Shown here: in pieces, positions 4,582-9,845 of the stretch
Layout: each line of letters opens with the position of its first letter
Position numbering within the stretch: position 1 is the stretch's first letter
Virus record (IMG/VR): IMGVR_UViG_3300047510_001668
Span: 64,001 to 128,000 of that record
Length of the DNA: 64,000 nucleotides
Reading direction: 5' to 3' (one strand)
Source of the DNA: a virus
Position numbers and translations under genes: made by a program
The notes under the pieces: model-generated
Databases searched by the model: none
What the model was told of the DNA's origin: nothing
The model's input: only the letters and a program-made list of their open reading frames with translations

Positions 4582-5750
4582 TAGTAACCTTGTTCAATAC
4601 GGTCAGCTGTAAGAATTTCCAATTCAGTGAATGAAAGTTGCAACGTCATTTCAGAAGGAGCTCCTGGGACTTCTCGGAATGTAGTGAAATCAGAACCACC
4701 ATACTCCACCTTCAAATCTGTTAGTGCGCAGTTGGAAATTTTAAACAGATGATTGTTTTCTTGGTTTCTGTAGAAGTATTGAATTTCAAATTCAGCAGGA
4801 TATCCTAGGAACACACCCCCAGTAGCTTGATTTCTAGTAGGGTGCATGTATTTCTTGAAAGTTTTAATGATTTTTTGTACTTCATTGTATTCAGCTTCAT
4901 CTTTAGGAAGAAACACATAACTGAATGTGAAGGTACGAAATCCCATGTTTTTAAACAATTGCACAGTGAATGGATTGATAGCCACGCCCAATGAAGAAGA
5001 AGCTAGTGCTTCCACATCACCTAATGCACCCAAAGGACCTTTGTTCACATTCTTCAAGAAATATCCTGCAGCTGCAGGACCTGCACCTTTAATGGCGTTC
5101 ATGGCAGAATCCATTAATCCTTCACCATTGTTGGACAGTGCAGAACGCAATCCACTAACTGCCTTTAATAAAGCATCGGATGCCAAAGCACCAATGTCAG
5201 CATCCTTCCAGAACGCTTTGTAGGATGCTGAAGGCTTATCATTCAAGTACAATGCCACAACATCTTTTAGATACACACGTTCACGATTCTCAGTGAGTGT
5301 TTCTATTCGGTCAGTTTGTGACAAGGCCAGGCCGGCGCCGCCACCTGCGACTGTTCCACCTGCTGTGACAAGTGTGGGTGCAGTTCCTCCAAAAGTCTTG
5401 GCAATTTTCTTCACAAAAGAAGAACCAGCCTGTGCACCACCAAAAACCAATCCAGTCTCAAAAGCAATTTTACCAGCTTCGACATTTCTATCAGGCCGAT
5501 GACTGTTAGACAGATTCACTTTAAAATTTCTAACAGTTTCATTTGCAGGAACATCACCTTGTCTTTTGGTGATGAAAAACATGGTGTAGTGAGGAAAGTC
5601 TAAATCTGTCTGACCAATTTCACTGGGGTAACGCATCACATTGAATGTTCTGTTTTCTTTTTGGAATGACACCCCTTGCGCTGTACGTAAATCTTGCACA
5701 GCAGCACGATTCTTAGGAACATCACTGGCGGAATTGGGAGGGTTAGGCAT
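4581..5750 (-). CDS. gp48: baseplate tail-tube cap gp48
   Basis: INPFTVQLFKNMGFRTFTFSYVFLPKD..E, YPAEFEI, CALTDLKVEY. Confidence 0.88.
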   Translation of the reverse strand: MPNPPNSASDVPKNRAAVQDLRTAQGVSFQKENRTFNVMRYPSEIGQTDLDFPHYTMFFITKRQGDVPANETVRNFKVNLSNSHRPDRNVEAGKIAFETGLVFGGAQAGSSFVKKIAKTFGGTAPTLVTAGGTVAGGGAGLALSQTDRIETLTENRERVYLKDVVALYLNDKPSASYKAFWKDADIGALASDALLKAVSGLRSALSNNGEGLMDSAMNAIKGAGPAAAGYFLKNVNKGPLGALGDVEALASSSLGVAINPFTVQLFKNMGFRTFTFSYVFLPKDEAEYNEVQKIIKTFKKYMHPTRNQATGGVFLGYPAEFEIQYFYRNQENNHLFKISNCALTDLKVEYGGSDFTTFREVPGAPSEMTLQLSFTELEILTADRIEQGY

Positions 5751-5777
5751 AAATATTCCTGGAAAATTTTACCTGAT

Positions 5778-5785
5778 TATTTATA
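5778..5785 (-). promoter_or_regulatory. late promoter TATAAATA for gp48-gp53 block
   Basis: Exact consensus; a divergent CATAAATA variant at 5748-5755 faces gp4. Confidence 0.75.
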
Positions 5786-6243
5786 TGGCCTACGTGAAAG
5801 ACACCTACAAAGGAAGATTCCTCCCCACGAAACCTCAGAAATACATCGGGGACACCTCCAACATCATCTACCGAAGCAGTTATGAATTGAAATTCATGAA
5901 ATGGTGTGACATGAATGGCTCTGTTAGACGTTGGGCCAGTGAGGAAATTGTCATCCCCTATCTCAGTCCTGCCGACGGTGAAATGCACCGATATTTCGTG
6001 GACTTTTTCATAGAAGTGGTCACCAAAGATGGTGGCATAAAGAAATATCTGGTGGAGGTGAAGCCCTATAGATACACTCAACCACCTGTGATACCTAAAA
6101 GAAAAACCCAACGCTTCATCTCGGAAGTGAAGCAATGGGGTGTGAACAATGCCAAGTGGGAGGCTGCAAAACGCTTTGCCAAGCAGAACAACATGGAGTT
6201 CATGTTGATTACCGAGAAGGATTTACAAACTTCGTATAAATAG
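5785..6243 (+). CDS. gp4: head completion nuclease gp4 (TnsA-like)
   Basis: YKGRF.P..PQKY.GD..NIIYRSSYE, WASEE, HRYFVDF, EVKP; start moved to MAYVKD. Confidence 0.9.
   Translation: MAYVKDTYKGRFLPTKPQKYIGDTSNIIYRSSYELKFMKWCDMNGSVRRWASEEIVIPYLSPADGEMHRYFVDFFIEVVTKDGGIKKYLVEVKPYRYTQPPVIPKRKTQRFISEVKQWGVNNAKWEAAKRFAKQNNMEFMLITEKDLQTSYK
6235..6242 (+). promoter_or_regulatory. late promoter TATAAATA
   Basis: Exact consensus overlapping gp4 stop, upstream of gp2. Confidence 0.8.
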
Positions 6244-6279: not shown

Positions 6280-6894
6280 ATGTCCCTGTCAAGTAGTAGT
6301 CAAGCCCCTATTTCACCACTTATGCCTGCCAATCCTATCACCACATTACGAGAACGGGAAACTCCCACCAGTTCATTCCGATGGTATCAGGACATGATTC
6401 GGAAGCTGGGAGCATCCAACATCACCCCTCAGAAGGTGATGAAAAGTGATATTGGTGAACTGGTGACATCTGTGGTTTCTGGCAACATGTATCTGTTCAT
6501 GTACGACCCGAAAACAGCAGACAAATTGCCATTCTACGACACCCTGCCTGTGGTGGTGATGTTCAGAAAAGTACAAGATGGATTCTATGGGTTGAATCTT
6601 CATTATCTTCCACCCATGATGCGAATGAGATTGTTGGATAGAATGATGGAAGTGGTGAATGATGAGGCCATGGGAGAAAACACCAAAATGATGGTGACCT
6701 GGAAGTTGTTGAGTAACGTCAGTAGATATCCAGGTGCCAACGTGGCAGTGAAACGATATCTGTACAATCAAATCAGTTCCAGAATCATGAGAATCTATCC
6801 CAAAGACTGGCGGAAAACCATCATGTTGCCTATTGACAACTTTGAAAAAGCATCACGCAATCAAGTATTCAACGACTCACGGAGTAAGATGTAA
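6280..6894 (+). CDS. gp2: DNA end protector gp2
   Basis: GNMYLFMYDPKTADKLPFYD..P, GLNLHYLPP, W...MLP. Confidence 0.9.
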   Translation: MSLSSSSQAPISPLMPANPITTLRERETPTSSFRWYQDMIRKLGASNITPQKVMKSDIGELVTSVVSGNMYLFMYDPKTADKLPFYDTLPVVVMFRKVQDGFYGLNLHYLPPMMRMRLLDRMMEVVNDEAMGENTKMMVTWKLLSNVSRYPGANVAVKRYLYNQISSRIMRIYPKDWRKTIMLPIDNFEKASRNQVFNDSRSKM

Positions 6895-7784
6895 TGACCG
6901 TACAAATTCTTGGAAGAGCAGGAGTCCCATCACTGAATGATTTTCTAAGTTTTGTTAGATTGAACAATCTAGCCAGACAAGAAAGATTCTTTGCAGGCAT
7001 TGCCATGCCTGGCATCAGTGAAGGACCATATTTAAATAGTGACTTGCAAGTTTTGAACTTGTTGTGTGAACAGGCGTCATTACCTGGAAAAAACATCAAT
7101 GTCAGAACTTTGCGAGTGAATGGTATTAATGAATATCGCGCCGGTACCATTGATTACGGCGGAGAAAGCATCACACTGCAATTTCTAGTGGATGGAAATT
7201 ATCGTGTTCGAGACATTATGGAAAAATGGATGAATCGTTGTGTGAGCACAGACACCCCTTCCAGAAATGAAGTGGAGTTCTATAACAATTACATTGGCAC
7301 CATCACTCTGCATGCCTTGATGCCCGCAGGTATTCCAGGTGAAGCGTTGTTCAACTGGAGCCCCACACAAGCAGATGTTGGATTGAATTCGGCATTAAAC
7401 AACCTCAGAAGTAAAAATCGTGCATTAGGAGTTCTAGCCACTAAAGCCACACAACTAGGCATGAACAAGGTGAATGAAGCCGTCGCTCGTGCCAAGTCTG
7501 GATTAGCCAGAAATATTCCTCCTGAGGCATTGGAAGCATTTCGTGACACAGAAACCACTGTGTTTGGAGTGCAACTGCATGATTGTTGGCCTCGATCCAT
7601 GAATGTGATGCCATTAGGATATGATGCTGTGGGTGTGGCGCGACTCACCATGACATTCACTTATCGTCACTGGACTTCAGAAGTGAAAGGTGCAGACACA
7701 TTTGATGTTAATGCCACCAACGCCTTGAACAAAGGATTATCAAAGTTTATAAACAAAACCATAAAAAGAACACCCAACGAATAA
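6894..7784 (+). CDS. gp54: tail tube-fold protein (gp54/gp19-like initiator)
   Basis: LCEQASLPG, ITLQFLVD..Y.VR..MEKW, CWPRSM..MPL, TFTYRHW. Confidence 0.7.
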   Translation: MTVQILGRAGVPSLNDFLSFVRLNNLARQERFFAGIAMPGISEGPYLNSDLQVLNLLCEQASLPGKNINVRTLRVNGINEYRAGTIDYGGESITLQFLVDGNYRVRDIMEKWMNRCVSTDTPSRNEVEFYNNYIGTITLHALMPAGIPGEALFNWSPTQADVGLNSALNNLRSKNRALGVLATKATQLGMNKVNEAVARAKSGLARNIPPEALEAFRDTETTVFGVQLHDCWPRSMNVMPLGYDAVGVARLTMTFTYRHWTSEVKGADTFDVNATNALNKGLSKFINKTIKRTPNE

Positions 7785-7795
7785 GAGGTTGATAT

Positions 7796-8485
7796 ATGAT
7801 ACCACAAGTGAAAGTGCCAACTTTTTCCATTACATTGCCAGTATCCAAAGAAAAAGTTGATTTTAGACCATTTTTAGTTAAAGAAGAAAAAATTCTGTTA
7901 TTGGTGAAGGATTCCAAGGATCCCAAAGATGTGGCCAGAGCTATAGGTGATGTTGTGTCTAGCTGTACTTTTGACAAAATGAACATCCACAAATATTGTT
8001 TGGCTGATGTGCAATATGCCTTCATTCAGATTCGTGGCAAGTCCATCGGTGAGGATTTGGAGTTGAATTTGAAGTGTGGAGGATGTGATGGCGGCAACAG
8101 CTTCATTCTGTCCGTGAATGATTTTGATGTGTTGAACAAAGATGTGAACAATGACATCAACATGGGTGACATCACTGTTCGTATGAAATCTCCCACCATT
8201 GAGCATTACACCACGTTGCTGTTGAATGATGACATGGAAACTATTTTTTCTGTGATTTGTGGGTGTATTGAGAAAATCTACTCAGGTGAAGAAGTGTTCA
8301 TCAATGAACCTGGGTTTGAAAACCAAATTCAAGAATTCTTAGACAATCTTCCTTCAGAAGAATTTGATAAAATCAAACAGTATTTTAGCACCATGCCTAT
8401 GCTACACAAGAAAATAGAATTCACCTGTAAACATTGCAAAACAGGCAATGAATTTTTGATTGACGGGCTATCAAATTTTTTTTAG
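7796..8485 (+). CDS. gp26: baseplate hub assembly protein gp26
   Basis: PTFSITLPVSKEKVDFRPFLVKEEKILL, IRGKSIGE, C..C, DGLSNFF end. Confidence 0.88.
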   Translation: MIPQVKVPTFSITLPVSKEKVDFRPFLVKEEKILLLVKDSKDPKDVARAIGDVVSSCTFDKMNIHKYCLADVQYAFIQIRGKSIGEDLELNLKCGGCDGGNSFILSVNDFDVLNKDVNNDINMGDITVRMKSPTIEHYTTLLLNDDMETIFSVICGCIEKIYSGEEVFINEPGFENQIQEFLDNLPSEEFDKIKQYFSTMPMLHKKIEFTCKHCKTGNEFLIDGLSNFF

Positions 8486-8505
8486 TAACTCTTTCTCATG
8501 ATACC

Positions 8506-8646
8506 ATGGAGAATTTCTACAAAGTGAACTTCATTTTGATGCAGAACCATAAATATTCATTAACTGAGTTGGAAAACATGATGCCGTGGGAAAGAGAGAT
8601 ATACATTTCAATGTTGTTGAAGTATTTGGAAAAACAAAATAGCTAA
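8506..8646 (+). CDS. gp51: baseplate hub assembly catalyst gp51 (not in ORF track)
   Basis: My translation MENFYKVNFILMQNHKYSLTELENMMPWEREIYISMLLKYLEKQNS. Confidence 0.88.
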   Translation: MENFYKVNFILMQNHKYSLTELENMMPWEREIYISMLLKYLEKQNS

Positions 8647-8657
8647 CAGGAACTATC

Positions 8658-9845
8658 ATGCCTTCAGGTACCGCCAAATCACGTAAACGTCCCAACGTCA
8701 GTGAAGATACTTTGCGAGAAATCAAGCGTCTCCTCACAGGAGATGCAACTGACTCCTTCAAGCCTGCCACATTTGGTGAATCCTTGAAGTATAATTTTCT
8801 TGGTGTGACACCCCAAAAGGAAGAAAAGGCTGGGGGATTTGGTAAAGCCTTGATGGCAGAGGCACAGAGTCAGTTTCGTGGATTGTTTGGCATCAAAACC
8901 ACAAAAAAAGAACGAGAAGAAGAAGCTGCCATGATGGCAGCAGAAGCTGAAAGAAAAGAAGCTGAAGCCAAAAAGAAAGAGGCCCAAGAAGCCAAAGAAA
9001 GAAAGATGCGTGAAGATGAGGTGAAAGCTGCTAAAGGTTCAGCAAAAAATATTTTTGTTGTGGCCACCACCTTACGTGCTGTTTTGAGTGAAGTGAACAC
9101 CATTCGACGTGTGGTGGAAGGCAGCATGAAACGTGAGAAAGGCGGGAGATACCGTGACGCAGATACTGGTCGTTACACCACTGCCACTTCAGGCATAGAT
9201 GTTCCCACAGCAGCAGAAATAGATTCAGGTGATGAGCTTGTGGCTGCAAAACTAGAAGAATTGTCGGAAAACCAACAGGCAGGGACAGACATTGATGTGA
9301 ATCTTGGCGGGGGCCCTGGCAGCATTTTTCCTAGACTGTTTCCACAGAAACCTATCACAACTGGACCCACGGTGAAACCAGGGGCAACAACTGCACGTAA
9401 TGCTGGTGCTAAAATTTTGGGGCGTGAAGTGGCAGAACAAGGCAGCAAAACAGCATTAAAAAGTGTATTGAAGAAAGTACCTGTTGTGGGATTACTGGCA
9501 GGAGGTGCCTTTGCAGCCGGCCGCGCCATGCGCGGTGATTTAACTGGAGCTGGTATGGAATTGGCTTCAGGTACTGCCAGCATGATGCCTGGGGCTGGGA
9601 CTGCCGCTAGCCTAGGGATTGATGCCGCTTTGATGGCTCGGGACATGTCCAGAACAGCAAGCCTGGAATCCGGCAGTCAAGCTGCAACACAACCGGTCAC
9701 TGTGAACAATGTGGATGCATCTACAAATCCTGTGATTGCACCTCAATCCGGCACACCAGCAGGAACACAGTCCACGATATCTCTCCGTGATACACACGGA
9801 AGTCATTTAAGATTCCAAGAAAATAGATTAACTCGACCCATGTAA
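8658..9845 (+). CDS. putative tape-measure/gp29-like hub protein
   Basis: Follows gp26/51; Ala/Gly-rich helical, KKVPVVGLLAG..GDLTGAGMELASG motif. Confidence 0.5.
   Translation: MPSGTAKSRKRPNVSEDTLREIKRLLTGDATDSFKPATFGESLKYNFLGVTPQKEEKAGGFGKALMAEAQSQFRGLFGIKTTKKEREEEAAMMAAEAERKEAEAKKKEAQEAKERKMREDEVKAAKGSAKNIFVVATTLRAVLSEVNTIRRVVEGSMKREKGGRYRDADTGRYTTATSGIDVPTAAEIDSGDELVAAKLEELSENQQAGTDIDVNLGGGPGSIFPRLFPQKPITTGPTVKPGATTARNAGAKILGREVAEQGSKTALKSVLKKVPVVGLLAGGAFAAGRAMRGDLTGAGMELASGTASMMPGAGTAASLGIDAALMARDMSRTASLESGSQAATQPVTVNNVDASTNPVIAPQSGTPAGTQSTISLRDTHGSHLRFQENRLTRPM

Follow-up and report, generated by a model that had tools for sequence, protein, structure and literature searches.

Conserved slippery site at the end of a T4-type gp26 gene and a probable -1 frameshift into a gp51-like extension

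The stretch of DNA analysed here, called the window throughout, comprises 64,000 nucleotides (positions 64,001 to 128,000) of the IMG/VR record IMGVR_UViG_3300047510_001668, an uncultured virus of 177,878 bp that is about 99% complete. T4-type genes for the baseplate and for replication are found in the window (Table 1). Within its plus-strand group of genes, a gp26-like gene follows a gene for a tail-tube-fold protein; in phages Mosig and phiM9, the homolog at this position bears the annotation baseplate tail tube initiator, gp54. A gp51-like open reading frame (ORF) sits in the -1 frame relative to gp26, and the gene for a 395-aa protein comes next. The gp4-like head completion protein of the same group (5641-6243, plus strand) has a strong match to PF08722, the TnsA-like endonuclease N-terminal domain (E 8e-21).

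Table 1. Genes and sequence features of the gp26 locus, of the second gp26-like gene of the same genome and of the T4 counterparts (window coordinates unless another sequence is named)
Feature	Coordinates	Strand	Matches and remarks
gp25, gp5, phrog_350 tail protein, gp53, gp48		minus	
gp4-like, gp2-like, gp54-like, gp26, gp51-like ORF, 395-aa protein		plus	
gp32, gp59		minus	after the 395-aa protein gene
Upstream neighbour, tail-tube-fold protein (gp54-like tube initiator)	6894..7784	plus	phrog_45 'tail tube', E 8e-28
gp26-like gene, zero frame, short product of 229 aa	7796..8485	plus	PF12322, phrog_150
Slippery heptamer T_TTT_TTT (X_XXY_YYZ) in the gp26 zero frame	8476..8482	plus	inside the T8 run 8476-8483
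Zero-frame stop TAG	8483..8485	plus	abuts the heptamer
-1 frame extension, 54 codons plus stop TAA (8644-8646)	8482..8646	plus	phrog_634, phrog_150
46-aa ORF likely to be gene-called as 'gp51'	8506..8646	plus	starts at ATG 8506
Downstream neighbour, 395-aa protein	8658..9845	plus	charged coiled-coil-like stretch, Gly-rich hydrophobic segment
Second PF12322 gene, 251 aa (outside the window)	G000:C1:9628-10383	minus	PF12322, E 2e-17
Second gp26-like gene with gp51-like extension	G000:C1:9441-10383 (L092:1293-2235; L173)	minus	
T4 gene 26	115802-116428	minus	
T4 gene 51	116479-117228	plus	

The gp26-like gene is read in phase 2 and closes with the codons AAT (8474), TTT (8477), TTT (8480) and TAG (8483). 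A preliminary description of this DNA, made from the sequence alone, had placed this ending over a run of eight T residues, and direct reading of the frames confirmed the coordinates. The -1 frame (phase 1) is closed by a TGA at 8461-8463 and is then open from 8464 to its stop at 8644-8646, with no ATG, GTG or TTG between 8464 and the ATG at 8506. The conceptual product of a -1 slip at the run reads ...SNFF, LVTLSHDT and M(8506)ENFYK, so that the 229 residues of the short product would be followed by 54 further residues, giving a conceptual long product of 283 aa. Both the frame that remains open from the run into gp51 and the fusion peptide FFLVTLSHDT-MENFY, as given in the preliminary description, were reproduced exactly.

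The T8 run at the gp26 stop is the sole T8 or A8 run on either strand of the 64-kb window. Runs of eight or more T or A are strongly depleted in the window (1 against 6.2 +/- 3.4 in dinucleotide shuffles). The run was also considered as the tail of an intrinsic terminator, and this candidate was rejected, as no stem lies immediately 5' of T8 and only a weak hairpin occurs at 8432-8450. That terminator-like hairpin (plus strand; 6 pairs, a loop of 7, then AATTTTTGAT) falls within the zinc-ribbon coding region of gp26, 26 nt 5' of the heptamer.

Comparison with T4 relates both parts of the locus to known tail genes. The window gp26 matches the Pfam family PF12322 (T4_baseplate) with an E-value of 2.4e-50 and 171.7 bits (cut-off 24.5), covering positions 2-218 of 219, and T4 gp26 (208 aa; E 9e-64) and T4 gp51 (249 aa; E 4e-52) are both full-length matches to this common family. 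On the 282-position profile of phrog_150, T4 gp51 occupies positions 13-280 and T4 gp26 positions 14-235; the window gp26 occupies positions 7-232, and the window -1 ORF occupies positions 230-278, contiguous with the gp26 match. The -1 ORF also matches phrog_634 (E 4.7e-24), and database homologs carry PF28602. Moreover, the conceptual 283-aa fusion aligned with T4 gp51 in one BLASTP segment that runs over the junction (23-280 against 16-246, E 3e-7). Therefore, T4 has two paralogs where the window has one gene with a -1 extension, and T4 gp51 is, as these alignments read, a gp26 paralog that carries the same extension in frame. T4 gp26 itself terminates three residues beyond its own FF.

The T4 pair thus resembles the window in having a short gp26 and a long gp51 that continues, without a change of frame, into the domain found in the -1 frame of the window. 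However, the T4 genes are two divergently transcribed paralogs, for which recoding is neither needed nor possible, whereas the window combines one gene with a -1 ORF, and the second PF12322 gene of its genome belongs to another subfamily with its own +1 extension. The T4-type in-frame gp51 occurs in 1375 phage records. T4 gp26 and gp51 are hub assembly chaperones (Leiman et al. 2010, PMC3004832), and gp51 is needed for hub assembly but is not in the particle (PMC3004832).

We compared 80 IMG/VR loci with a gp26 alignment and four isolate genomes (cyanophages S-MbCM7 and S-8S53, Pelagibacter phage Mosig and Methylophilales phage Melnitz), which gave 84 unique gp26 genes including that of the window; the gp26 proteins of the comparative loci share 32-62% identity with the window gp26. 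The in-phase heptamer NNT TTT TTN is present in 84/84 unique loci. Its first Phe codon is TTT in every one of them, while the share of TTT elsewhere in these genes is 75%, and the wobble base before this TTT is invariably T, against 64.5% at such sites elsewhere. The residue just before FF varies (S, N, D, A or H), and FF at the C-terminus is invariant in 27 diverse gp26 proteins. The naive probability of such an invariant heptamer is 3e-27, a value that is overstated because the loci are related. The second Phe codon, the last of the heptamer, is TTC in 66 loci, TTT in 16 and TTA in 2. TTC is enriched here, even though TTT is preferred elsewhere, because the first -1 codon, which begins on the final heptamer base, is usually CGN (Arg in 62/82 loci). 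In the zero frame, the stop follows the heptamer directly in 11 loci and after one codon in 69, together 80/84 loci.

Beyond the heptamer, the -1 frame is open in every locus, with a conserved extension of about 55-65 aa, and an alignment of 31 diverse junctions is gap-free from the heptamer through the extension. Variation in the -1 frame shows a three-base periodicity that starts at the first codon after the slip: over the first 8 post-slip codons, the entropies by codon position are 1.15/0.77/1.49, the third position being the most variable. A His at +6 is found in 81/82 loci and a Leu at +9 in 77/82. The preliminary description had taken the residues upstream of ATG 8506 for conserved gp51 sequence and had proposed an alignment of gp26-gp51 junctions across T4-like genomes; the coding constraint upstream of this ATG is evident from these positions and from the periodicity, and slippery run and -1 phase are kept throughout the 84 loci of this marine group. 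Judged from the alignment, the junction is unlike a non-coding spacer between two independent genes.

These data bear on a rival explanation, in which two separate proteins are made and the extension is a free 46-aa gp51 peptide translated from ATG 8506 by termination-reinitiation or leaderless-like coupling, with no fusion. The ATG is just 20 nt past the gp26 stop, GenBank annotators call a separate CDS in relatives, and in 40/84 loci the first -1-frame ATG is found just beyond the stop, three codons from the slip. However, no SD-like motif occurs within 25 nt upstream of ATG 8506, as the preliminary description had remarked, although such a motif is present for 8/11 neighbouring genes. The position of the first -1-frame ATG is also scattered among the loci, from codon 1 to codon 19, and in 26/84 of them it lies at codon 18-19, inside the conserved domain. 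Met 8506 of the window aligns with the conserved Leu at +9, and S-MbCM7 has no usable -1 start, its extension ORF being unannotated. An independent start of gp51, which the preliminary description had set against a fusion, is thus not conserved among the 84 marine-group loci. In addition, the separate peptide accounts neither for the constraint on the eight residues before 8506 nor for the invariant synonymous T and TTT, the fixed spacing and the in-frame architecture of T4 gp51. We therefore consider two separate proteins an unlikely arrangement in the window, and on this comparison ORF 8506-8646 is probably not a gene of its own.

More distant phages are less uniform. The site is kept as T_TTT_TTY in Aeromonas phage PX29, Stenotrophomonas phage Mendera and Ralstonia phage RSP15, and the phiM9 junction reads T_TTT_TTG; in Mendera, phiM9 and RSP15, the heptamer is accompanied by a TGATG overlap. 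Vibrio phage D532 (OZ196211) has no heptamer but a TAATG overlap of stop and ATG, and from its sequence may make the extension as a separate peptide. Given these overlaps, together with the ATG near the stop in 40/84 loci, separate translation is possible in some phages. Therefore, the short and long pair may be expressed by frameshift, by coupling or by two genes as in T4, depending on the lineage.

It could also be argued that one in-frame gene was split by a homopolymer error or by a recent frameshift mutation, as homopolymer runs are error-prone and two metagenomic sequences (P0121 and P0122) are in-frame fusions with the junction FF|R/L as predicted. Both of these in-frame forms are singletons, however, and the same split in the same phase recurs across many samples, in 84 unique loci, and is also seen in the genomes of isolates (Mosig, Melnitz, the cyanophages and PX29). 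Moreover, independent assemblies of the nearest relatives encode a 229-aa protein ending at the same FF (P0001, 96% identical, with 15 member sequences; P0002, 92%). Because of this conservation and of the near-identical independent assemblies, assembly error is excluded, and artefact or decay as a whole has, in our estimate, a negligible probability. In three other metagenomic sequences (P0124, P0146 and P0172), the gp51-type extension ORF continues in frame into a downstream protein that contains an acidic DxDxDG-like stretch and hydrophobic segments; these are short contigs, for which gene-call artefacts are possible.

The sequence evidence points to a gp26 gene that very probably makes both a 229-aa and a 283-aa protein through a ribosomal -1 slip on the T run. 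Most ribosomes on gp26 would stop at TAG 8483 and release the short form. A minority would slip back one base with two tRNA-Phe on TTT (8477) and TTT (8480), both of which would re-pair perfectly with TTT/TTT after the tandem slip. The next codon of the slipped ribosomes would be TTA, starting at 8482, and -1 translation would run on to 8646, yielding a long form that consists of gp26 and the gp51 C-terminal domain. The abutting zero-frame stop may aid the slip. Site, phase, conservation and -1 coding from the heptamer on are established, as is the collinearity with T4 gp51; the slippage itself and its efficiency are what we infer from them.

The slip would apparently proceed with no conserved RNA stimulator. 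RNAalifold predicted 0 pairs downstream of the heptamer on the 31 diverse junctions, and the RNA of the window folds no better than its shuffles (z -0.44). In the 24 nt before the heptamer, neither the window nor its nearest relatives have an SD-like motif. GGAGG or GAGG is found 8-17 nt upstream of the heptamer in 68/84 homologs, where it may merely reflect Glu-Gly codons. An upstream SD-like stimulator was rejected for this absence and this confounding, and an unstimulated -1 tandem slip is the most economical reading. The G/GT frameshift of lambda is reported to work without a conserved RNA stimulator. In contrast, the -1 frameshift of E. coli dnaX takes place at A_AAA_AAG with an upstream SD and a downstream hairpin. 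The window resembles dnaX in the bacterial-type -1 tandem slip that its homopolymeric heptamer would support, and the GGAGG/GAGG of the 68/84 homologs, about 9-10 nt before the heptamer, is a dnaX-like upstream motif. However, the window has no SD-like element upstream and no conserved downstream hairpin, and its shifted product would be the longer one, whereas that of dnaX is the shorter one.

The same two proteins could arise in another way, if RNA polymerase stuttered on T8 and added one U. A one-base insertion gives exactly the -1 frame, the run is the only one of its kind in 64 kb, and 8 T is near the slippage length for bacterial and phage polymerases. Yet 66/84 homologs have only T6 (TTTTTTC) with the arrangement unchanged, T6 being too short for efficient polymerase slippage, and the conserved item is the in-phase heptamer rather than the length of the run. 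Since most relatives have only T6, transcriptional slippage cannot, by this comparison, be the conserved mechanism, although it could contribute in the window phage; as an explanation of the locus, we judge it very unlikely.

A second gp26-like gene in the same genome, outside the window, also argues against polymerase slippage. This gene ends AAC TTT TTT TGG CCT GAC and, after a few more codons, stops; its extension resembles the gp51 domain and is encoded in the +1 frame. When fused conceptually, the window gene (by -1) and the second gene (by +1) give proteins that align over the junction with an E-value of 5e-4. Among 75 unique IMG/VR loci related to the second gene, the +1 frame is open in all, the -1 frame meets a stop within three codons in 68, and a 15-base motif is identical in 58. 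The T run is broken in two of these loci (TTC TTT TGG), which nevertheless keep the ribosomal-type core TTT TGG, pointing to the ribosome, which would slip by +1 on UUU_U while UGG occupies the A site, and not to a stuttering polymerase. The second gene therefore looks like a case of conserved +1 programmed frameshifting in a sister chaperone family, as far as sequence can tell. Members of the subfamily occur in named phages, for example in Flavobacterium phage immuto, Microcystis phage Mel-JY01 and several jumbo phages.

The products of the -1 slip proposed for the window gene can be viewed in light of the predicted fold of gp26. The AlphaFold2 model of the window gp26 has a pLDDT of 89; its N-terminal domain (about residues 1-94) adopts a tail-assembly-chaperone (TAC) fold, and its C-terminal half contains a CxxC...CxxC zinc-ribbon-like element. 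Foldseek returned nothing significant for the gp26 model against the PDB (probability 0.35), and a profile search against PDB sequences returned nothing relevant. An exhaustive VIA-align search of 48,161 PDB representatives with the window gp26 model ranked 3fgx first (Z 7.8) on residues 1-94, followed by 2ob9, the HK97 tail assembly chaperone (Z 7.0), 3klu, YqbN (Z 6.4), and 5ir0 (Z 5.2). When the in-frame relative P0121, which shares 29% identity with window gp26, was modelled as well (pLDDT 86), the same three chains took the first three places and 5ir0 came fifth. With both models, the top three TACs scored Z 6.4-7.8 with 82-85 residues aligned, and all TAC matches lay at Z 5.0-7.8 on residues 1-95, a range that the tool rates as middling. 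The literature assigns 2OB9, 3KLU and 3FGX to the phage tail assembly chaperones (PMC9603447) and identifies 5IR0 as the TAC of the satellite PLE1 (PMC12987554). Thus, four solved TACs (HK97 gp13, Rbstp2171, YqbN and PLE ORF19) head two independent searches with predicted models, which is hard to credit to chance despite the modest Z scores. In the P0121 model, the extension begins with a linker modelled at low confidence and ends in a long C-terminal helix modelled with confidence.

The TAC fold of the gp26 N-domain, established at the level of the predicted model, supports the analogy with lambda G/GT, and with it the earlier proposal that gp26 and gp51 are the G/GT equivalents. Xu, Hendrix and Duda reportedly found in 2004 (Mol Cell) that a -1 frameshift is conserved in the tail assembly chaperone genes of long-tailed phages. 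Like the window, lambda G/GT has an X_XXY_YYZ heptamer that ends a chaperone gene, a startless extension ORF and a common N-terminus for both products; in both systems, no obligatory RNA stimulator is apparent and the gene lies in the tail module after a gene for a tube-fold protein. HK97 gp13 likewise shares the TAC fold with the modelled N-domain of the window gp26. On the other hand, sequence similarity between lambda gpG and the window gp26 is undetectable. At 229 aa, the window protein exceeds gpG in size, and it contains a second alpha/beta domain as well as the zinc-ribbon-like element. Its extension is short (54 aa, mainly one long helix), and the stop abuts the heptamer. Furthermore, its downstream neighbour has no tape-measure match, and the role of the T4 counterpart is described as hub assembly.

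By this analogy, the short and long forms of gp26 are probably non-structural G/GT-type tail assembly chaperones that act in the assembly of hub, tape measure and tube initiation, the identity of the clients being what we infer from sequence. The client would be bound by the TAC-fold domain common to both forms, and the rare long form would connect it to a partner by means of its extension. Taken together, we hold with good confidence that the best explanation of the locus is a -1 slip that yields short and long G/GT-type tail assembly chaperones, the counterparts of T4 gp26 and gp51.

The gene order invoked in the preliminary description, with gp26 and gp51 between a tube-like and a tape-measure-like gene, is borne out on its upstream side only. 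In lambda-type loci the position lies between the tube gene and the tape measure gene; here, the tube fold is seen upstream (the phrog_45 match in Table 1), whereas the downstream gene is without a tape-measure match. The 8658-9845 product has no match in Pfam and no similarity to T4 gp29 (E 0.37), and no T4 gp29 homolog was found anywhere in the genome. For its residues 246-348, the only matches are to internal segments of large PHROG families, and its Atlas matches are unnamed viral clusters, one with a Gly-zipper. With neither Pfam nor T4 gp29 matches and with unnamed Atlas clusters only, an identification of ORF 8658-9845 as the tape measure found no support; it is possible that its product is a hub or tape-measure-like protein. 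A better tape-measure candidate adjoins the second gp26-like gene: directly after that pair lies a gene for a protein of 634 aa. PhageMin_Tail (tape measure) clusters are among the Atlas neighbours of this protein, which is, by this similarity, a probable tape measure.

We found no report of a gp26-gp51 frameshift in the open-access full-text literature, although an older or paywalled report is possible. Nine GenBank records that we examined show either two separate CDS or an unannotated extension. To our knowledge, the T4 superfamily is the one major group of long-tailed phages for which a tail-chaperone frameshift has not been described. If gp26 and gp51 of this superfamily are true homologs of G/GT, tail-chaperone frameshifting would extend to it, and a mechanism could be assigned to the long-unexplained 'catalytic' gp51 of T4. 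In T4, the reference phage for contractile tails, the roles of gp26 and gp51 are still unclear. If most T4-like phages use one gene and a -1 slip, and if the shared domain has the chaperone fold, gp26 and gp51 would become directly testable as G/GT equivalents, and frameshifting in tail chaperones would be common among long-tailed phages. In the window phage, the second TAC-like gene next to the likely tape measure, with its conserved +1 shift (core UUU_UGG), would serve the same purpose. In addition, hundreds of annotations of cyanophages, pelagiphages and other phages would need a ribosomal_slippage CDS, those affected being the ones in which a tiny stand-alone 'gp51' is listed or gp51 is left unannotated.

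As to the origin of the two arrangements, we lean slightly towards the view that gp26/gp51 of the T4 superfamily are true homologs of G/GT, that one frameshifting gene is ancestral and that the T4 paralog pair is a derived, hard-wired form. A role of gp51 as a chaperone of the tape measure has already been proposed by at least one annotator: in MN709128.1 (Acinetobacter phage vB_AbaM_Berthold), the homolog of T4 gp51 is annotated as 'tape measure protein assembly chaperone'.
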